A stretch of DNA of 64,000 bases from Candidatus Collierbacteria bacterium GW2011_GWB2_45_17. Its GTDB lineage: Bacteria; Patescibacteriota; Microgenomatia; UBA1400; MFAQ01. Position 1 is the stretch's first letter. Every line of letters begins with the position of its first letter. This document shows, piece after piece, positions 1,005 through 58,822 of this stretch. Position numbers and translations under genes: made by a program. The notes under the pieces are model-generated. The model was given only the letters and a program-made list of their open reading frames with translations. It searched no databases and was not told the origin of the DNA. The stretch lies in the NCBI GenBank assembly GCA_001001485.1, contig LCKO01000001.1:76517-140516 (forward strand). Reading direction: 5' to 3'.

Positions 1005-2015
1005 ATGCCCAAAAAACCAGCAATCCTTGTCATCTGCGGTGCCACAGCCACCGGCAAAACCTCCTTAGCTCTCAAAGTAGCAACGGAAATTATTTCACTT
1101 TCGTCATTGCGAGGAGCGAAGCGACGTGGCTCTCCTGGATACCCCTTGCGGGTAAATCTCACTCCATCAACATCTGTGAACATCCTTTCCGCCGACTCCC
1201 GTCAAATTTATCGTGGTTTGGATATCGTCACCGGCAAAGATCTTCCTCGCGATCTTCCACCGATGATTCGGTTTTTTGGTCTCGACTTGGTCGAACCCAA
1301 TCAGCCCTTCAGCCTTTTAGATTATGTCCGGTATGCCAAAAAAGTTATTCAGGAATCACTAGATAAAGATATTCCCCTCATTATTGTCGGAGGCACCGGT
1401 CTGTATTTAAAAGCCATCACCTCTGATTTGTTAAACGTTCAAGTTCCTCCGAACCAAAGTCTTCGGTTAGAGCTTGAGAAGCTAACACTGGTAGAGCTTC
1501 AAAACCAACTTCAAGAAGTAAATTTCGAAAAATATAAATCATTAAACAATTCCGATATTCACAACCCACGGCGCCTCATCCGCGCTATCGAAATCTCCTC
1601 CGCCAATCCGTCATTGCGAGGAGGTATTCCGACGTGGCAATCTCACTCCACCCCCACATTCCTCTGGGTCGGTCTCCGCCAAGATAAAGAAGCTCAGAGC
1701 GCCAGCATCCGCCAAAGAGTTCTCAAGCGCCTAAACGCTGGAGCGATTGATGAAGTCAAGCAGTTAATCAAGAAATATCCCGAGAGAGACATGGCTCTTT
1801 TTACCAGTCTTGGAGTCAGAGAAATAATTGAATTTCTAAATAAAAAAATCTCACGGGAAGAATTAATTAACCTATGGACCGCCACCGAAAATGACTACGT
1901 TCGGAGACAAATGGTTTGGTTCAAGAAACAACCTGGCATAATTTGGTATGATAGAAACAAGATAAATAAAGATCTGGCCATCAAGCTGGCAGAATTATTC
2001 AAACAAAATGATTAA
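1005..2015 (+). CDS. miaA: tRNA dimethylallyltransferase
   Basis: P-loop 'ICGATATGKTSLA' and 'ILSADSRQIYRGLDIVTGK'. The ATG at 1005 follows the miaB stop (1001-1003). The 909 start in the ORF track overlaps miaB and is unlikely. The gene carries two in-frame repeat insertions. Confidence 0.9.
   Translation: MPKKPAILVICGATATGKTSLALKVATEIISLSSLRGAKRRGSPGYPLRVNLTPSTSVNILSADSRQIYRGLDIVTGKDLPRDLPPMIRFFGLDLVEPNQPFSLLDYVRYAKKVIQESLDKDIPLIIVGGTGLYLKAITSDLLNVQVPPNQSLRLELEKLTLVELQNQLQEVNFEKYKSLNNSDIHNPRRLIRAIEISSANPSLRGGIPTWQSHSTPTFLWVGLRQDKEAQSASIRQRVLKRLNAGAIDEVKQLIKKYPERDMALFTSLGVREIIEFLNKKISREELINLWTATENDYVRRQMVWFKKQPGIIWYDRNKINKDLAIKLAELFKQND
1102..1165 (+). repeat. R1 hairpin repeat, long variant (CGTCATTGCGAGG...GGTAAATCTCACTCC), in-frame inside miaA
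   Basis: Same termini as the copies at 1609, 8720, 15422 and 58688. The internal part matches 58715-58755 (GCTCTCCT[G/A]GATACCC[C]TTGCGGGTAAATCTCACTCC). It translates as 'SLRGAKRRGSPGYPLRVNLTP', lying between the MiaA P-loop helix and the 'SADS' motif. Confidence 0.8.
1609..1649 (+). repeat. R1 hairpin repeat, short variant, in-frame inside miaA
   Basis: Sequence CGTCATTGCGAGGAGGTATTCCGACGTGGCAATCTCACTCC, translating as 'PSLRGGIPTWQSHST'. Confidence 0.8.
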
Positions 2016-4011: not shown

Positions 4012-4320
4012 GCCTCCAGGTCATAGTAAGCCGGATTCTGTCTAGGAGGAATATCTGTCTATGCTCGAGACTTTAGGGGCGGAAAAAGCACCTTAATCCC
4101 AGATCGTCGATTGCAGCGGGGCGGGTTACCACCCCTATACCGTTACTGGTATAGGGTCCCCGACTAATGCCGGGACGTTTCACCTTTAATCGTCTCTGTG
4201 GCCCTATCGTGCCTCACGAGTTGCCTCGTGAAGAGCCGAGTTTCCCCGGCCACCCTGCTTTTTAGCTGTCCGGACTTTCCTGTCGCCTAAGGCGACCATT
4301 CCCCACCAGATCCTGGAGGC
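4012..4320 (-). ncRNA. rnpB: RNase P RNA, bacterial type A, compact (about 309 nt)
   Basis: The reverse complement contains AGGAAAGTCCGGAC (CR-I), GCAGGGTG, CACAGAGA, AAAGGTGAAACG, GGTAACCCGCC and GACAGAATCCGGCTTA (CR-V). P1 closes the molecule as 5' GCCTCCAGG / 3' CCTGGAGGC. Confidence 0.9.
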
Positions 4321-8489: not shown

Positions 8490-8713
8490 TGCCAATTCAA
8501 AAAATTCTCAAAGTTGGAAATTCACTAGGGGTTACTCTTCCTTCAAACTTCGTCAAAAATTTATCTCTCAAGCCTGGAGATTCGGTCGAAGTCACTCAAG
8601 ACATTGGCAACTCTTTAACCTTCTTCTTTATCGACAGTCACCAGCTCAGTTTAGGTCTTAATCAGCCTGTCCGCCATGGAGGGCCTAAAAAAAATACCAA
8701 AAAGCAGATATAA
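8489..8713 (+). CDS. AbrB/MazE/SpoVT-type DNA-binding domain protein
   Basis: 'KVGNSLGVTLPSNFVKNLSLKPGDSVEV' is a swapped-hairpin motif. The ATG overlaps the upstream stop (TGATG). Confidence 0.6.
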   Translation: MPIQKILKVGNSLGVTLPSNFVKNLSLKPGDSVEVTQDIGNSLTFFFIDSHQLSLGLNQPVRHGGPKKNTKKQI

Positions 8714-8719
8714 TTTACA

Positions 8720-8763
8720 CGTCATTGCGAGGTCGCCTCAGGCGACCGTGGCAATCTCACTCC
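8720..8763 (+). repeat. R1 hairpin repeat, intergenic copy
   Basis: Sequence CGTCATTGCGAGGTCGCCTCAGGCGACCGTGGCAATCTCACTCC, with an internal GTCGCC-TCA-GGCGAC hairpin. Confidence 0.8.
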
Positions 8764-11774: not shown

Positions 11775-12329
11775 GTGCCCAATATTTTTCCAAGTAGAAA
11801 ATCTATAAGATTACCAGGATATGACTATTCACAATCTGGAACATATTTTGTAACGATTTGTTCGTACAAACACGAACGCATCTTTGGGGAAATTGTTAAC
11901 AGGGAAATGAAGTTAAACGAATTGGGGTATATTTTGGAAAAAGAATGGATCGGTTTACCTCAAAGATTTACCAATGTTGATCTGAATTCATTTGTCATTA
12001 TGCCAAATCACATACACATGATTATCAAAATTGTAGGGGTTTCATTTATGAAACCCTATCAAAACATGAAACCCGAAACAAGTATCGCCAAATCAAAATC
12101 CAATTGTCACATGGGTTTGATAAATCAAACCCCTACGATTGGAATGATGGTTCGACATTTCAAATCCAAATGTTCATATGAAATTCACCACAATGGATTA
12201 AATCAAATCGTCTGGCAACGTAATTATTTCGAACACATCATTCGGGATGATTCTGATTTGATTCGAATTGTTGAATATATCCAAACTAATCCATCAAATT
12301 GGGAAAAAGACAAATTATATATTCCGTAG
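11775..12329 (+). CDS. REP-associated tyrosine transposase (RAYT, IS200/IS605 Y1 family)
   Basis: 'IRLPGYDYSQSGTYFVTICSYKHERIFG', an HUH motif 'MPNHIHMII' and C-terminal 'WQRNYFEHIIRDD..L.RI.EYI..NP'. Flanked by its own hairpin repeats. Confidence 0.8.
   Translation: MPNIFPSRKSIRLPGYDYSQSGTYFVTICSYKHERIFGEIVNREMKLNELGYILEKEWIGLPQRFTNVDLNSFVIMPNHIHMIIKIVGVSFMKPYQNMKPETSIAKSKSNCHMGLINQTPTIGMMVRHFKSKCSYEIHHNGLNQIVWQRNYFEHIIRDDSDLIRIVEYIQTNPSNWEKDKLYIP
12033..12056 (+). repeat. REP-like hairpin, copy inside the RAYT gene
   Basis: GTAGGGGTTTCATTTATGAAACCC, a GGGTTTCAT/ATGAAACCC palindrome. It translates in-frame as 'VGVSFMKP', just after the HUH motif. Confidence 0.75.
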
Positions 12330-12354
12330 GGGTTTCATTTATGAAACCCGTCAC
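12321..12354 (+). repeat. REP-like hairpin, copy overlapping the RAYT stop codon
   Basis: ATTCCGTAGGGGTTTCATTTATGAAACCCGTCAC, identical over 34 nt to the copy at 12387. Confidence 0.8.
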
Positions 12355-12386: not shown

Positions 12387-12420
12387 ATTCCGTAGGGGTT
12401 TCATTTATGAAACCCGTCAC
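12387..12420 (+). repeat. REP-like hairpin, copy supplying the 3' end of cca
   Basis: A 34-nt sequence identical to 12321-12354. Its reverse complement encodes the last residues '..GDGFHK*' and the stop codon of the - strand cca gene. Confidence 0.8.
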
Positions 12421-15397: not shown

Positions 15398-16351
15398 ATG
15401 AAAAAATCCAAACCACACCACCGTCATTGCGAGGAACGAAGTGACGTGGCAATCTCACTCCACCCCTCACTCAGATTTTTTTTCAATATCTCAGCCTTAT
15501 TTTCTATCTGCCTCTTCTTTATTTTTTCTCCGGTTATGGGCAGGTTGCCTGGTCCCGTCAAACCCTCCGTCAAAGCCGCCTACACCAGCGAACCCAAGTC
15601 TCCGGTTTCCCAAAAATTATCCCCTCCCAGTTTTACCACCACCGGTATCTTCGTCATGGATCTGGATACTGGCATCGTTCTGTTGGATAAAAATCCTCCC
15701 CTCCGTCTCAAGCCTGCCTCTCTGACCAAAATTATGACTTCTCTGGTGGCGCTTGATTATTATTCCGAGGGCTCCGTCTTAAAAGTCATCAATGGTCAAA
15801 AATCTCTTGGTAACACGGTCAAGCTGGTGAAAGGCGACGAACTTACTGCTAGTGAAGTGATCTACGCCTTACTCGTTCCCTCCGGAAACGATGCCGCCGT
15901 TACTTTAGCCGAAAACTACCCGGGGGGTTATCAGCAGTTTGTCAAAAAAATGAATCAAAAAATTACCGAACTGGGCCTATCTAACACCAACTTCACCAAT
16001 GTCAGTGGAGTAGAAAGTCCCAATCACTACACTTCCGCTTACGACATTGCTATGATAGCTAGAACTGCCCTAAGAAGACCCGCTTTCTCCACCATCGTTT
16101 CTACAAAAAACATCACCATCACTAGCTTAAAAGGCCATACCTATCCCTTGGAATCTACCAATATTCTTCTGGGAAAACCGGGCATTGTGGGCGTTAAAAC
16201 CGGCTGGACTCCTGAAGCCGGCGAGTGCCTCGTTATCTTGGTCACGAAGGACAATCACCCTGTTCTCATTAGCCTACTAAATAGTAATGATCGCTTCGGC
16301 GAAGCCCAAAAAATCATCAATTGGGTCTACTCCAACTACCTTTGGCAATAA
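15398..16351 (+). CDS. D-alanyl-D-alanine carboxypeptidase (S11, PBP5/DacB-like)
   Basis: SxxK 'ASLTKIM', SxN 'PSGND' and KTG 'VKTGWT', with an N-terminal TM anchor. The start is either 15389 (GTG) or 15398 (ATG). Confidence 0.85.
   Translation: MKKSKPHHRHCEERSDVAISLHPSLRFFFNISALFSICLFFIFSPVMGRLPGPVKPSVKAAYTSEPKSPVSQKLSPPSFTTTGIFVMDLDTGIVLLDKNPPLRLKPASLTKIMTSLVALDYYSEGSVLKVINGQKSLGNTVKLVKGDELTASEVIYALLVPSGNDAAVTLAENYPGGYQQFVKKMNQKITELGLSNTNFTNVSGVESPNHYTSAYDIAMIARTALRRPAFSTIVSTKNITITSLKGHTYPLESTNILLGKPGIVGVKTGWTPEAGECLVILVTKDNHPVLISLLNSNDRFGEAQKIINWVYSNYLWQ
15422..15461 (+). repeat. R1 hairpin repeat inside the 5' end of the carboxypeptidase ORF
   Basis: CGTCATTGCGAGGAACGAAGTGACGTGGCAATCTCACTCC, translating as 'HCEERSDVAISLH' ahead of the TM anchor. 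Confidence 0.8.
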
Positions 16352-23667: not shown

Positions 23668-23745
23668 CCTCCGCGCGGGCGACCTCCCCAAAAACGGGCA
23701 GAGATTCCCAGAGTGTTGTCTGTTATAACGATATTCGAACTTGGT
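23668..23745 (+). repeat. att-like remnant A (decayed copy of the tRNA-Gln 3' flank and 3' end)
   Basis: CCTCCGCGCGGGCGACCTCCCCAAAAACGGGCAGAGATTCCCAGAGTGTTGTCTGTTATAACGATATTCGAACTTGG aligns by eye with 27361-27432 and 31905-31975. It aligns more loosely with 37060-37125, which contains the real tRNA T-arm (TTCGAA core). Confidence 0.65.
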
Positions 23746-26436: not shown

Positions 26437-26499
26437 ATCTGATATTTATGGATTGAGCCAGCCTTGGCCTAACGGCCAAAGTGCCTGCTTCGCAGGCAC
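26437..26499 (+). repeat. R2 twin-hairpin module, copy 1
   Basis: ATCTGATATTTATGGATTGAGCCAGCCTTGGCCTAACGGCCAAAGTGCCTGCTTCGCAGGCAC. It has two adjacent stem-loops; the second is GTGCCTGC-TTCG-GCAGGCAC. It ends 47 nt upstream of the ATG at 26547. Confidence 0.75.
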
Positions 26500-26546
26500 A
26501 AGAAACACTCTAACTTTATAGTAATCAAGAAGTGTAAAATTCACCT

Positions 26547-27312: not shown

Positions 27313-27434
27313 CTGGTGGGCGGGCGCGCGTCCTCCAGAGGCGGATCAGCCTATGGCTGAGGCGACCTCCCCGAAAACGGGCGGGAAATCCCAGAGTGTT
27401 GCCTGTTATAACGAAATTCGAACTTATTTTCGGG
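27313..27434 (+). repeat. att-like remnant B (with a 31-nt internal insertion)
   Basis: CTGGTGGGCGGGCGCGCG...GCGACCTCCCCGAAAACGGGCGGGAAATCCCAGAGTGTTGCCTGTTATAACGAAATTCGAACTTATTTTCGGG. Collinear with remnants A and C and with the tRNA flank. Confidence 0.65.
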
Positions 27435-27688: not shown

Positions 27689-27734
27689 CGTCATTGCGAG
27701 GAGTGCAATGACGAAGCAATCTATATAGATTGCT
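27689..27734 (+). repeat. R1-related repeat variant
   Basis: CGTCATTGCGAGGAGTGCAATGACGAAGCAATCTATATAGATTGCT, with hairpins GTCATTGC/GCAATGAC and AGCAATCTAT/ATAGATTGCT. Confidence 0.65.
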
Positions 27735-27777
27735 CTTCCTCGCCATAAAATATCAGATAGTTAGGAGAAATTTTACT

Positions 27778-27840
27778 ATCTGATATTTAAGGGTTGAGAC
27801 AGCATTGGCCTTCGGCCAAAGTGCCTGCTTCGCAGGCACA
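27778..27840 (+). repeat. R2 twin-hairpin module, copy 2
   Basis: ATCTGATATTTAAGGGTTGAGACAGCATTGGCCTTCGGCCAAAGTGCCTGCTTCGCAGGCACA. Both loops are TTCG. It ends 20 nt upstream of the ATG at 27861. Confidence 0.75.
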
Positions 27841-27860
27841 GTAGATGGTAGAATTCAATT

Positions 27861-30005: not shown

Positions 30006-30087
30006 ATATAGAAAATAATCAATCGTTATTTTGAGATGTAGCGGGATTTGGCCTATTGGCCAGAGTGAGTGCTACGCAGATACACTA

Positions 30088-31828: not shown

Positions 31829-31909
31829 CTTTTTGAAAGATAAACAGATTATTGTGGAATGGGAAAAGCCCTTCGCATCGCTCCGCGCGTGGGCGGGCGC
31901 GCGGGCGAC
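31829..31909 (+). repeat. 81-bp direct repeat, left copy (orphan recombinase 3' end)
   Basis: CTTTTTGAAAGATAAACAGATTATTGTGGAATGGGAAAAGCCCTTCGCATCGCTCCGCGCGTGGGCGGGCGCGCGGGCGAC, identical to 36984-37064. It would encode '..LKDKQIIVEWEKPFASLRAWAGARA', but no recombinase gene lies upstream of it. Confidence 0.9.
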
Positions 31910-31942
31910 CTCCCCGAATGTGGGCGAGATTTCCCAGAGTGT

Positions 31943-32035
31943 TGGCGGTTTACGAAAAATGTCGAACTTCATTTGATTAGCTCGGCCTTCGGCCTCGCTT
32001 GCTCCGGCGCGGCGCCCCCACCCGCCGCGCCTCCG
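31943..32035 (+). repeat. 93-bp perfect inverted repeat, left arm
   Basis: TGGCGGTTTACGAAAAATGTCGAACTTCATTTGATTAGCTCGGCCTTCGGCCTCGCTTGCTCCGGCGCGGCGCCCCCACCCGCCGCGCCTCCG is the exact reverse complement of 35304-35396. Confidence 0.9.
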
Positions 32036-35303: not shown

Positions 35304-35396
35304 CGGAGGCGCGGCGGGTGGGGGCGCCGCGCCGGAGCAAGCGAGGCCGAAGGCCGAGCTAATCAAATGAAGTTCGACATTTTTCGTAAACCGCCA
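35304..35396 (-). repeat. 93-bp perfect inverted repeat, right arm
   Basis: Exact reverse complement of 31943-32035. Its outer flank (35397-35470) is a degenerate inverted copy of the GGGCGGGCGCG..ACCTCCC att-like flank. Confidence 0.9.
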
Positions 35397-35601: not shown

Positions 35602-37158
35602 ATGATTAAATACATCGCCTATTGCAGGAAATCTACAGACGAACCAGACAGACAAATTTTGTCTATTGAGGCGCAAGTTGCCGAACTTGAGGAATTCGCC
35701 GCAAAGGAGAATTTAAAAATAGTTTCTTTCATTACTGAGAGTAAAACTGCCAAAGAGCCGGGAAGACAGAAATTTGCGGAGGTTTTGGAAAAGATTGAAA
35801 ACGGCGGAGCCGCCGGTATCATCTCGTGGCATCCAGACAGACTTGCAAGAAATTCTGTTGATGGCGGAAAGATTATCTATTTATTGGATACAGGAAAATT
35901 GCTTGATTTAAAATTTCCGTCTTTTTGGTTTGAAAATACACCGCAAGGCAAGTTTATGTTAGGAATGGCCTTTAATCAGTCTAAGTATTATGTGGATAAT
36001 CTTTCCGAAAATGTTAAACGAGGTAACCGCCAAAAACTCCGCCGTGGCGAGTGGCCGAATCAAGCAACTTTTGGTTACTTAAATATCAACAAAAAGATCG
36101 AAGTTGATAAGAAACGAGCCAAGTATGTGCAAAAAGCTTTTCAGCTTTTTGCTTCCGGCGGCTACGGATATGCGGACATCCGAAAATTTTTCAACCAAAA
36201 CAAAATTTTCAACAAGTCCGGTCATGAACTCCACCTTGATAAAGTCAAAAGAATTTTGACCGATCCGTTCTACTATGGAGTGATGAGATTTTGCGGCGAA
36301 CTTTATGAAGGAAAACACCAGCCCTTAATTAGCAAGAAGCTTTTTGATAAATGTCAAGAAGTTGTGAAACTCAAAAGCAGAAAGGTTAAAAACAACAAAC
36401 ATCTTTTTGATTTTCTGGGACTTGTAAAGTGCGGCGAATGTGGCGGCGCAATCACCGCTGAAATGCATACAAAGAATTACAAACGAACTAATAGAACGGT
36501 TGAGTATGTATATTACCGTTGTTCAAAAAAGAAAGGTGCTTGCTCGCAAAAATATATTGATAAAGAGGAAATTCAGAAACAACTAAAAGAGATTGTTTTG
36601 CGAGCATCTCTGCCGCCGCACGCCGCCAAAAAATTTCTTGAGTGGGCGGATAAAGACGTAAGTCAAGAAAAGGATAAATCATCGAGAATTATTTCGACTT
36701 ATCAACTGCAACTCAAGGAAACTGAGGAGAAAACTGATCGTTTGCTTGAAGGATATTTAGACAAGATAATTTCTCCTGAAGATTACCAAAAGAAAAAGAA
36801 CGAACTGGTTGAAACAAAATCGCTTCTAAGTTCCAAAATTAAGGAGATTTCTACAAACGGCGTTGAATGGCTCGAACCTTTCCAGGAATTCGTAAATAGT
36901 GCGCTTTCAGCGCAAAAAATCGCGCGCAAGGGTTCCGCGGACTCAGAACTGCGGTTCTTCGTCCAAAACATCGGTTCGAACTTCTTTTTGAAAGATAAAC
37001 AGATTATTGTGGAATGGGAAAAGCCCTTCGCATCGCTCCGCGCGTGGGCGGGCGCGCGGGCGACTGACCCCGTTCCTACCGAAATGTCCCGAAGTGTTGC
37101 CGGACTAGGACTCGAACCTAGAATATTCGCCTTCAGAGGGCGACGTCCTACCAATTAG
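35602..37158 (+). CDS. Large serine recombinase (resolvase/invertase N-domain + recombinase domain + zinc ribbon + coiled coil)
   Basis: 'IAYCRKSTDEPDRQILSIEAQ' (Ser nucleophile context), 'SWHPDRLARN' and zinc ribbon 'CGECGG...YYRCSKKKGACSQ'. The ORF tail reads through the att repeat into the antisense of tRNA-Gln, so the last 40 aa or so are probably fortuitous. Confidence 0.85.
   Translation: MIKYIAYCRKSTDEPDRQILSIEAQVAELEEFAAKENLKIVSFITESKTAKEPGRQKFAEVLEKIENGGAAGIISWHPDRLARNSVDGGKIIYLLDTGKLLDLKFPSFWFENTPQGKFMLGMAFNQSKYYVDNLSENVKRGNRQKLRRGEWPNQATFGYLNINKKIEVDKKRAKYVQKAFQLFASGGYGYADIRKFFNQNKIFNKSGHELHLDKVKRILTDPFYYGVMRFCGELYEGKHQPLISKKLFDKCQEVVKLKSRKVKNNKHLFDFLGLVKCGECGGAITAEMHTKNYKRTNRTVEYVYYRCSKKKGACSQKYIDKEEIQKQLKEIVLRASLPPHAAKKFLEWADKDVSQEKDKSSRIISTYQLQLKETEEKTDRLLEGYLDKIISPEDYQKKKNELVETKSLLSSKIKEISTNGVEWLEPFQEFVNSALSAQKIARKGSADSELRFFVQNIGSNFFLKDKQIIVEWEKPFASLRAWAGARATDPVPTEMSRSVAGLGLEPRIFAFRGRRPTN
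36984..37064 (+). repeat. 81-bp direct repeat, right copy (true recombinase 3' end plus att flank)
   Basis: Identical to 31829-31909. Confidence 0.9.
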
Positions 37159-37169
37159 ACGATCCGGCA
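37097..37169 (-). tRNA. tRNA-Gln (anticodon CUG), no encoded CCA
   Basis: Hand-folded from the reverse complement: TGCCGGA TC GTCT AATTGGTA GGAC G TCGCC CTCTGAA GGCGA ATATT CTAGG TTCGAGT CCTAG TCCGGCA A. It has a 7-bp acceptor stem, a GTTCGAGTC T-loop and a CU-CUG-AA anticodon loop. Confidence 0.85.
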
Positions 37170-58687: not shown

Positions 58688-58755
58688 CGTCATTGCGAGT
58701 TTCGGTACTCCGAACCGTAGCTCTCCTAGATACCCTTGCGGGTAAATCTCACTCC
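58688..58755 (+). repeat. R1 hairpin repeat, long variant
   Basis: CGTCATTGCGAG...GTAGCTCTCCTAGATACCCTTGCGGGTAAATCTCACTCC. Its 3' part matches 1127-1165. Confidence 0.8.
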
Positions 58756-58780
58756 ACCCTGTCATTCAGGGCTTGACATA

Positions 58781-58808
58781 TCGGTCAAAGTGCCTGCTTC
58801 GCAGGCAC
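58781..58808 (+). repeat. R2 module, partial copy (second hairpin only)
   Basis: TCGGTCAAAGTGCCTGCTTCGCAGGCAC. Confidence 0.7.
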
Positions 58809-58822
58809 AAAAGTGGAAACTA

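Follow-up and report, generated by a model that had tools for sequence, protein, structure and literature searches.

A CGTC-type hairpin repeat family read in-frame within miaA and other genes of Candidatus Collierbacteria

In Rickettsia, the palindromic element RPE-1, reported by Ogata and colleagues in 2000, is said to lie in-frame in many genes, including essential ones, and to be translated at the protein surface in a small, reduced genome; RPE-1 is ~100-150 bp long and restricted to Rickettsia. A broader group is formed by the repetitive extragenic palindromes (REPs), which the text of Di Nocera, De Gregorio and Rocco (2013, PMC3733652) sorts into GTAG-tagged and CGTC-tagged superfamilies. 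As that text defines them, CGTC REPs have an unpaired CGTC (TGTC and CCTC are allowed), an uninterrupted 8-9-bp stem that almost always starts with two A-T pairs, a 4-5-nt loop, and a short tail with the consensus CCA; they occur mostly as head-to-head dimers, mostly between genes, in several phyla and without a dedicated transposase, and they are also documented in-frame in genes, often two per gene and often N-terminally (PMC3733652). The families that the text names include CGTC-1 (Neisseria dRS3 and R. conorii RPE-6) and CGTC-4 (RPE-4), the peptides VIPAKAGIH, VIPDLIRDP, and HSGLDPES are classical CGTC-1 and CGTC-3 signatures (Additional file 3), and the authors allow that their census may have missed unusual members with bulges (PMC3733652). 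Here we describe a repeat of 40-68 nt, which we call R1, in 64,000 nucleotides of Candidatus Collierbacteria bacterium GW2011_GWB2_45_17 (contig LCKO01000001.1, positions 76,517 to 140,516 of the forward strand; hereafter the window); two of its copies lie in-frame in miaA, the gene for tRNA dimethylallyltransferase. We conclude, with a probability of roughly 0.72, that R1 is a non-autonomous CGTC-type hairpin repeat family that has multiplied in Microgenomates and is translated where it sits at tolerant sites in genes.

The initial annotation placed six copies of R1 in the window; all six are found at those positions and all are on the + strand, with 0.77 expected and none of 100 shuffles giving six. 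The 13-mer CGTCATTGCGAGG is exact at 1102, 1609, 8720, 15422, and 27689 and has one mismatch at 58688; the 3' end GTGGCAATCTCACTCC has no mismatch at 1634, 8748, and 15446 and three at 1150 and 58740, both of which belong to long variants in which an extra module interrupts the end. In the order 1102, 1609, 8720, 15422, 27689, 58688, the copies are 64, 41, 44, 40, 46, and 68 nt long. Three of them are in coding sequence, that is, copy 1 (1102..1165, +, a long variant; residues 33-54 of MiaA, SLRGAKRRGSPGYPLRVNLTP), copy 2 (1609..1649, +, a short variant; MiaA residues 202-215, SLRGGIPTWQSHS), and copy 4 (15422..15461, +), which encodes RHCEERSDVAISL in the cytoplasmic tail at the N-terminus of a D-Ala-D-Ala carboxypeptidase. 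Copy 1 contains a nested 24-nt hairpin module, TCTCCTGGATACCCCTTGCGGGTA (1131..1154, +), between its GGC and AATCTC that adds SPGYPLRV to the protein.

The remaining copies are intergenic. Copy 3 (8720..8763, +) has a strong inner hairpin (GTCGCC-TCA-GGCGAC) and lies between a TATAAT (8709-8714, 5 nt upstream) and the ATG of secD (8781, 17 nt downstream); copy 6 (58688..58755, +) is a long variant flanked by a DHH/DHHA1 gene and a Ham1-family gene, and its inner hairpin, TTCGG-TACT-CCGAA, is accompanied by a 23-nt module (58722-58744). The copy upstream of def (27689..27748, +) had been listed as a variant; it is really part of a larger two-hairpin palindrome in which the R1 5' half folds on itself (CGTCATTGC/GCAATGACG) and is followed by the palindrome AGCAATCTAT/ATAGATTGCT and then by a degenerate inverted left arm (CTTCCTCGCCAT). 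The description of R1 as palindromic holds for the intergenic copies at 8720 and 27689 (DNA folding z = -4.0 and -8.3, respectively) and only weakly for the three coding copies, which are poor hairpins (z = +0.3, 0.0, and -0.4).

To describe R1 beyond the window we used a scan of one genome per species with the pattern GTCATTGCGAG-N16-46-ATCTCACTCC, which lists at least 105 loci; from these listed loci we collected 117 R1 copies, ~100 of them distinct, and the counts that follow are samples. The listed copies share one plan: a pyrimidine plus C, GTC, ATTGC, GAG, a variable middle, CG(T/A)(G/A), GCAAT, and a tail. ATTGC and GCAAT form an outer stem of 5 bp that begins with A-T pairs and leaves the tag CGTC unpaired, and GAG on one side faces CGTG or CGAA on the other in an internal loop; every one of the 117 collected copies, like those of the window, has this CGTC/ATTGC...GCAAT/C arrangement. 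GTCATT is preceded by C in 90% and by T in 10% of 82 distinct copies that come from candidate-phyla-radiation loci (the GTC itself being fixed by the search pattern). The tail after GCAAT reads CTCACTCC, then A (99%), a pyrimidine (95%), and C (62%), that is, CTCACTCCAYC overall. The two ends of R1 are not inverted copies of one another.

Within these constant ends, the variable inner hairpin spans 0-8 bp or holds nested modules. A perfect inner stem of at least 4 bp is present in 43 of 103 distinct copies, with more than 20 different stem sequences (e.g., ACCCGC-CCTG-GCGGGT, CCCGGC-AAA-GCCGGG, and GCGGC-GAA-GCCGC), and the inner hairpin reaches p ≤ 0.05 in 29 copies, with 5 expected. A second class of middle, to which the three coding copies of the window all belong, folds weakly and reads GAGCGAAGCGACG, GAGGTAYTCCGACG, or a close variant; in the copies that we term class A, the tag is able to pair with a downstream GACG. 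Small hairpin modules recur among the loci, each at its own fixed junction: one of 21-24 nt (..GATACCC-loop-GGGTA) is found between GGC and AATCTC at 1131-1154 and 58722-58744 of the window and, as a 21-nt version, in L010, L065, and L071; another, CCTGCCTG-CCGG-CAGGCAGG, precedes CGTGGC in L008, L017, L025, and L060; and in L082 a GTAG repeat is nested within the R1 middle. The canonical R1 is free of stops in three sense frames (RHCEERSDVAISL, VIARSEATWQSHS, and SLRGAKRRGNLTP) and in one antisense frame (GVRLPRRFAPRND).

We assign R1 to the CGTC-tagged repeats because of its tag, its stem that starts with A-T pairs, and its proteobacterial relatives with the same core. A BLAST search of plasmids identifies the same 33-nt core in Methylosinus, Methylocystis, Halomonas, Novosphingobium, Calothrix, and Legionella; the core is ~94% identical between the candidate phyla radiation and the Alphaproteobacteria. 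The Methylosinus and Halomonas relatives that we inspected are head-to-head dimers (in Methylosinus, CGTCATTGCGAGGAGCGAAGCGACGAAGCAAT-CCAG ... CTGGATTGCTTCGCGTTGCTCGCAATGACG), and their tail directly after GCAAT is CCA in Methylosinus and CTCA in Halomonas; two sister families, GTCATCCCGAGCGCAGTCGAGGGATCTCACTCCACC and CGTCATCTCGAGCGAAGTTGAGAGATCACACTCCAC, have the same lineage-specific tail as R1. The likeness to Rickettsia palindromic elements that was suggested at the outset is apt, because the CGTC superfamily includes RPE-4 and RPE-6 according to the text of PMC3733652. The strings SLRG, HCE, VIAR, and ATTGC do not occur in the text or supplements of that paper, its Figure 2 excepted, so we treat R1, with its ATTGCGAGG stem, as what is apparently a further family beyond the four CGTC families described there.

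A full-text literature search with R1 strings (HCEERSDEAI, VIARSEATKQS, SLRGAKRRGN, and GTCATTGCGAGG) returned only unrelated primers, and we found no description in the literature searched of the R1 sequence or of in-frame REP-type repeats in the candidate phyla radiation. In-frame REP-type repeats are already a known phenomenon; Collierbacteria are a new lineage for it. Rfam at gathering thresholds identifies only RNase P and one tRNA in the window, with nothing on R1, and a permissive Rfam scan of the R1-bearing loci likewise places nothing on R1. The IMG/VR viral contigs contain no match to the R1 pattern; thus there is no sign in them of a phage vector.

The miaA gene (1005..2015, +; PF01715 (IPPT), 6e-47) is intact. 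The open reading frame (ORF) 909-2015, whose real start is 1005, reads through both R1 copies and encodes ...SLSSLRGAKRRGSPGYPLRVNLTPSTSV... and ...NPSLRGGIPTWQSHSTPT..., exactly the two in-frame peptides that the initial annotation had quoted, and Candidatus Collierbacteria bacterium GW2011_GWB1_45_35 (candidate phyla radiation, Microgenomates) encodes the same protein, at 100% identity. Outside the inserts, the ratio of nonsynonymous to synonymous substitution rates (dN/dS) is 0.16-0.18 in comparisons with three relatives, and every invariant MiaA column is retained in an alignment of 31 orthologs; miaA is under purifying selection and, by these measures, functional and not the pseudogene that had been considered as an alternative.

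The two segments had also been proposed to be lineage-specific insertions, and in this respect the two sites differ. At site 1, between the helix that follows the P-loop and the strand with ILSADS, ~27 residues have no counterpart in solved MiaA structures, and the same segment is a gap in insertion-free Collierbacteria orthologs; in these alignments site 1 is a true lineage-specific insertion. At site 2, however, the MiaA proteins of Bacillus, Staphylococcus, and E. coli hold a segment of equal length, and in Collierbacteria orthologs without R1 a loop of 17-22 residues is still present, so R1 fills or replaces a variable loop with no net lengthening; judged by the refuting condition that came with the initial annotation, site 2 is not a net insertion. 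Copy 2 enters this loop in one reading frame of the element and leaves it in another. That both segments are in loops, as was also suggested, agrees with the AlphaFold model (mean predicted local distance difference test (pLDDT) score 83.5): residues 36-57 and 200-217 are coil, the site 2 loop sits between helix 188-199 and strand 218-225, and confidence is lowest at the repeat sites (pLDDT <50 at residues 45-53; mean 56 at residues 201-210).

In the alignment of 31 orthologs, site 1 contains SLRGAKRRG(N)LTP, SLRST.., the GTAG-type VGAIHESP, HSGLDPES, VIPDP.., or no insert, and site 2 contains SLRGG(I/T)PTWQS, SLRGAKRRGNLTPS, PRHCEERSDAAIQ, RHCQERKRPACRQAGVAISLHPE, VIASFGTPNRGNLTP, VIPAKAGIH, or unrelated sequence; judged from these peptides, the two loops are hotspots that hold several repeat families in several frames. 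This pattern fits a filter for permissive sites together with a tendency of repeats to cluster together. In L003 and L004, which have no R1 at site 2, a short tandem repeat, CCGTGTCA, fills the loop in three copies. In one ortholog (P0005; alignment columns 60-140), the segment GNLTPP..V.ILSADS is present twice with CGTC-type repeat peptides between the two, which implies that flanking coding sequence was duplicated along with the repeats.

The D-Ala-D-Ala carboxypeptidase (Peptidase_S11; 15398..16351, +; PF00768, 5e-51; P0121 is 100% identical) provides a third repeat hotspot, its N-terminal tail. The ORF (15389/15398) encodes MKKSKPHH-RHCEERSDVAISL-HPSLR followed by a membrane helix and gives MKKSKPHHRHCEERSDVAISLHPSLR. 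Orthologs start with MKK with or without an insert, and the same place holds either none or a different repeat in a different frame (P0124, MKKMNPRLFF...; P0144, MKKYPKLPRLLL...; P0122, MKKNKTTT-VIASRTRRSNP-YRF...; P0140, ...RHCDLPANAAHQALQAGGTRRGNL...; P0142, ...VISSERSESRDLTP...); because this MKK start is common to insertion-free orthologs, copy 4 is placed within the coding region and before the membrane helix, as first annotated. Translation may also begin at an internal GTG at 15446. The orthologs were collected by a protein database search, none of them being among the fetched R1 loci. The VIPAKAGIH, VIPDLIRDP, and HSGLDPES families occupy the same MiaA and carboxypeptidase hotspots as R1.

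Genic copies are also frequent in the listed loci. Using a crude ORF caller (ORFs of at least 100 residues) on the 84 R1 copies in candidate-phyla-radiation loci, we find 37 (~44%) well inside long ORFs, compared with a coding share of ~86% of the sequence; the odds of a genic position are lowered roughly eight-fold, although genic copies are common, and the difference points to selection against them. Of these copies, 28 are sense and 9 antisense, a ratio that matches the 3:1 ratio of stop-free frames; this match argues that genic R1 copies are translated rather than removed. The sense copies use the SLRG frame in 20 cases, VIAR in 6, and RHCE in 2. Named by inspection of the translations, the sense hosts include PMT/ArnT-like membrane glycosyltransferases and a radical-SAM-like protein, and the antisense hosts include a class I aminoacyl-tRNA synthetase, a UvrD-like helicase, and NAD synthetase-, Dus-, TsaD-, and TatD-like proteins, with antisense peptides of the form GVRLPR..PRND or WSEIAT..PRNDG. 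Translation of the window copies would yield predicted tryptic peptides that include GSPGYPLR, VNLTPSTSVNILSADSR, and GGIPTWQSHSTPTFLWVGLR.

The orientation of R1 is tied to the chromosome strand. Every contig in the listed loci with at least two R1 copies has all of them on one strand; in MFAS01000001, a closed 1.09-Mb Collierbacteria genome, at least 14 of 14 strict copies and 17 of 17 cores are on the + strand, from 40 kb to 1.04 Mb. The forward strand of R1 is the C-rich strand in 93 of the 105 listed loci (mean skew -0.115), and most of the exceptions come from beyond the candidate phyla radiation. The skew of the window's + strand averages -0.065 in plus-strand genes and -0.144 in minus-strand genes; third codon positions give -0.26 for plus-strand genes and, read on the coding strand, +0.14 for minus-strand genes. 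We considered gene direction as the cause of the strand bias and rejected it, because genes on both strands show negative + strand skew, third codon positions included, and antisense genic R1 copies are likewise on the C-rich strand. In the window, the skew goes with the chromosome strand and is independent of gene direction.

One strand is enriched in C along the whole chromosome in MFAS01000001, in a Beckwithbacteria genome, and in Ch65 (Kadnikov et al. 2020, PMC7143001), and mostly unidirectional replication has been proposed to explain such monotonic GC skew (PMC7143001). The strong skew of the window and of loci L010-L106 of MFAS01000001 agrees with this asymmetry. The C-rich strand carries ~70% of the window genes, which runs counter to the usual rule of a G-rich leading strand. 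Four metagenome-assembled genomes labeled 'uncultured Pseudomonadales' (CAYGCQ, CAZUFH, CAYHNG, and CAZPFY) share both the skew and the repeats, and their R1 loci include L007, L013, L015, L017, L022, L023, L031, L033, L042-L044, and L049; in three of them, loci match those of Collierbacteria or other candidate-phyla-radiation genomes with 77-86% nucleotide identity along stretches of hundreds of bases to ~2 kb. The four are almost certainly mislabeled members of the candidate phyla radiation.

No target-site duplication is detected: 73 of 82 copies have no immediate flank identity, and with flexible boundaries the longest word shared by the flanks is 4.55, the same as in a shuffled-pair control (4.55). 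At site 1 of miaA, four close relatives have the same R1 ends and four different middles; the sole difference between the window and L001 at this site is a clean 24-nt module that is absent in L001 and L002, with flanks 100% identical. Where R1 occupies a site in one genome, the orthologous site of another can hold a different CGTC family. The synonymous divergence (dS) of miaA between the window and L005 is ~1.2, yet the site 2 copies are identical at 43 of 44 positions; the copies upstream of secD are identical at 43 of 43 and follow the same TATAAT, with flanks that differ. The miaA gene has a mosaic structure as well: up to site 2, L001 resembles the window (96%), and beyond it L001 resembles L003 (98%). 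Across this site, nucleotide identity goes from 96% to 76% for window vs L001, from 85% to 98% for L001 vs L003, and from 65% to 85% for window vs L005. The repeats are thus either constrained at the DNA level or homogenized by conversion, and they coincide with recombination junctions; this supports an account, rival or complementary, in which much of the work is done by recombination between copies.

We propose that R1 multiplied in Collierbacteria and neighboring Microgenomates, where most copies are intergenic, and that genic copies would survive only if the net change keeps the frame, a stop-free frame is read, and the insertion falls in a surface loop or terminal tail that tolerates it. 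Surviving genic copies would be translated as short disordered peptides (SLRG..., VIAR..., RHCE..., or antisense GVRLPR..PRND), and the two MiaA loops and the carboxypeptidase N-terminal tail, which have repeatedly collected different repeat families, would be such permissive sites. In view of its orientation, its hairpin, its unpaired tag, and the absence of duplications, R1 would most likely spread by a strand-specific single-stranded-DNA mechanism, either an HUH/Y1-type enzyme acting in trans or a comparable replication-coupled process, followed by homogenization between R1 copies. The specific proposal that R1 and the sister CGTC repeats insert strand-specifically via single-stranded DNA at the replication fork is tentative, and we would not bet on it as it stands.

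Several observations weigh against the reading of R1 as a spreading CGTC-type family. The initial annotation expected copies in coding sequence to favor lengths divisible by three, and they do not: the core lengths in ORFs of the listed loci are distributed 13:12:12 modulo three, so the pasting of a fixed unit fails to explain how the frame is kept, and the only clean in-frame length cases are the nested 21-/24-nt modules and a 57-nt tandem insertion (L007 vs L078). A flank-to-flank search of all collected loci found no clean pair of empty and filled sites with sharp ends; it yielded one plausible case of presence/absence (L089/L046 vs window ~46093, a 50-53-nt difference with ambiguous ends), the 57-nt tandem insertion, which is beside a sister element, and one decayed remnant. 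The four middles within shared ends at site 1 suggest conversion or in-place turnover at least as much as transposition. The stem of R1 is split into a 5-bp outer part, an internal loop, and a variable inner hairpin, in contrast to the single 8-9-bp stem of CGTC REPs, and in Collierbacteria R1 copies are singletons on one strand, not head-to-head dimers (five of the six window copies are singletons; extra cores in the listed loci are on the same strand in 49 cases and on the opposite strand in 19). The counts across genomes are samples, and the mobility of R1 is inferred, no transposition event having been observed. The strand lock could reflect a function in chromosome biology instead. Finally, a Y1 (IS200-like, RAYT-type) transposase gene in the window (11775..12329, +; PF01797, 25.8 bits with a cut-off of 23) is not supported as the mobilizer of R1; because its own repeats are GTAG-tagged and not R1, the protein is at most a candidate trans-acting mobilizer.

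Some of these points are met by an explanation in which R1 no longer transposes and old copies are reshuffled by homologous or microhomology-mediated recombination and gene conversion, with the effect that middles are exchanged, modules become nested, and the elements serve as junctions when strains recombine. Such reshuffling accounts for shared ends with different middles at one orthologous site in four relatives, for the near-identity of the site 2 copy (43/44) and the secD-upstream copy (43/43) despite a miaA dS of ~1.2, for a mosaic switch point in miaA that is the site 2 R1 loop, for different CGTC families at the same orthologous sites, and for the absence of target-site duplications. 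However, the arms available for conversion are only 11-19 nt, the dispersal of R1 in unrelated genes and intergenic regions, many genomes, and distant phyla needs some spread at some time, and conversion alone does not predict a strand lock over the whole chromosome; we consider this explanation possible, with the odds against it, and it is compatible with a spreading CGTC-type family as a later phase, the two not being exclusive. The strict orientation to the C-rich strand over the whole chromosome would instead be expected if R1 were a functional DNA or RNA signal, that is, a strand-oriented motif (Chi/FtsK-like), a site bound by a protein of the nucleoid, by gyrase, or by a recombination protein, or a transcript-stabilizing hairpin in 5' leaders, with the genic copies as a by-product. 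The R1 termini are far more conserved than the host gene, the 33-nt core has the high identity between the candidate phyla radiation and Alphaproteobacteria noted above, and the 8720 copy is just after a TATAAT and before secD, both of which are conserved in L005. Against a signal, positions are irregular and copy number varies greatly between genomes, the same argument being made in the text of PMC3733652. The density of R1 is also low (~1 per 10 kb in the window; ~1 per 50-80 kb, with the strict pattern, in MFAS01000001), the middle is hypervariable, R1 matches no Rfam family, and the intergenic copies have no consistent position relative to genes (with the element as +, the flanking genes are ++ in 16 cases, +- in 7, -+ in 9, and -- in 6), so we regard a signal as unlikely.

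Two further explanations concern the genic copies. Intervening sequences in rRNA genes are a known trait of candidate-phyla-radiation bacteria, and R1 could by analogy be removed after transcription or translation in the manner of a mini-intron or intein, a possibility raised in the initial annotation. This is very improbable: every genic copy is stop-free and keeps the frame, a filter that, like the 28:9 ratio of sense to antisense, makes sense only with translation, and the 40-nt element has neither ribozyme nor splice-site features, no Rfam match, and peptides without intein motifs. The genome is assembled from a metagenome, in which short repeats can mislead assemblers, so the arrangement might be a chimera formed at repeats, or miaA might be a pseudogene. 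We give such an artefact hardly any credence, since the same in-frame arrangement recurs in independent assemblies (P0001-P0003, P0006, and P0007) and different samples (L001 and L002), and since the ORF is intact with its invariant columns retained and a dN/dS of ~0.17.

The other features of the window include the Y1 gene itself, which is syntenic in L005 (75% identical); of the 18 window ORFs that were scanned against Pfam, no other was found to encode an HUH single-strand DNA enzyme. GTAG-tagged repeats, CGTAGGGGTTTCATTTATGAAACCC, lie within and just downstream of its ORF (12028-12061, 12113-12137 (inverted), 12321-12354, and 12387-12420). The internal forward and inverted pair is translated in-frame between the HxH and tyrosine motifs (VGVSFMKP...HMGLINQTPT) and is conserved in the L005 ortholog. 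A 39-nt double-hairpin repeat, CTTGGCCTAACGGCCAAAGTGCCTGCTTCGCAGGCACAA, occurs at 26463-26501, 27803-27841, 30047-30085, and 58772-58810; the 26463, 27803, and 58772 copies are tens of bases upstream of gene starts, and two copies follow R1. A dispersed 65-nt repeat, GGCGACCTCCCC..GGGC..CCCAGAGTGTTG.., has three intergenic copies (23678-23742, 27361-27425, and 31904-31968). An exact 81-nt direct repeat (31829-31909 / 36984-37064) brackets ~5 kb beside a tRNA gene (37097-37169, -), and a perfect 93-nt inverted repeat (31943-32035 / 35304-35396) is inside the bracketed region, which could be an integrated element or a recent duplication. A class A bacterial RNase P RNA is encoded at 4012-4316 (-; 105.5 bits, gathering score 100).

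In-frame REP repeats within essential genes are textbook material for Rickettsia and are catalogued in few other bacteria, and candidate-phyla-radiation genomes are small, dense, and rich in unexplained protein insertions. R1 and its sister families would account for many odd low-complexity segments (SLRG..., VIAR..., ...PRND) in candidate-phyla-radiation proteins; this is a warning for annotators and structure predictors that such segments are probably repeat-derived loops, and the families may be usable as strain-typing markers. The strand lock links the repeat family to the one-strand asymmetry of Collierbacteria, Beckwithbacteria, and Ch65 and offers a second, independent handle on replication. 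If insertion is strand-specific at the fork, the repeats would be an independent marker of mostly or wholly one-direction chromosome replication in this lineage; they would also supply the essential proteins of a minimal genome with new surface-loop sequence in a steady and directional way.

Several known systems resemble R1 in part. RPE-1 is similar in its in-frame occurrence in functional genes at loop positions in a small genome; R1 differs from it at 40-68 nt, a comparison that is by description and size only. The GTAG REPs with RAYT (REPINs) are, like R1, short hairpin repeats with an unpaired tetranucleotide tag that are thought to move as single-stranded DNA; in R1, however, the tag is CGTC and no copy is next to the RAYT gene of the window, and the strand bias of the GTAG repeats is small (46:30 in the listed loci). 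IS200/IS605 elements, described by Ton-Hoang and colleagues in 2010, reportedly recognize subterminal hairpins, make no target-site duplication, and have an orientation bias tied to replication direction; R1 shares the hairpin, the absence of target-site duplications, and the strand-tied orientation, whereas those elements carry tnpA, often tnpB, and distinct left and right ends, and R1 is a 40-nt unit with no gene. R1 is not known to have a cognate enzyme. The MITEs, miniature transposable elements with inverted repeats (Correia, Nezha, and Coxiella QMITEs, among others), are likewise small non-autonomous repeats that are occasionally in-frame in genes, but they have terminal inverted repeats derived from insertion sequences and target-site duplications, and R1 has neither. 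The CGTC REPs are closest: R1 shares their unpaired CGTC tag, a stem that starts with A-T pairs, a scatter that is mostly intergenic, an occurrence in several phyla, in-frame genic copies, and the lack of an adjacent dedicated transposase (no copy is next to the window Y1 gene). It differs from them in its tail, CTCACTCCAYC, in which CCA is 6 nt further out, and in the ~44% of sampled copies that are genic. The traits of R1 that are unusual in this lineage are its modular middle, its long tail, the large share of genic copies, and a strict confinement to the C-rich strand of a chromosome whose skew is monotonic. Read against these systems, R1 is a CGTC-tagged repeat, with its split stem, long tail, and singleton habit as departures from the described type.

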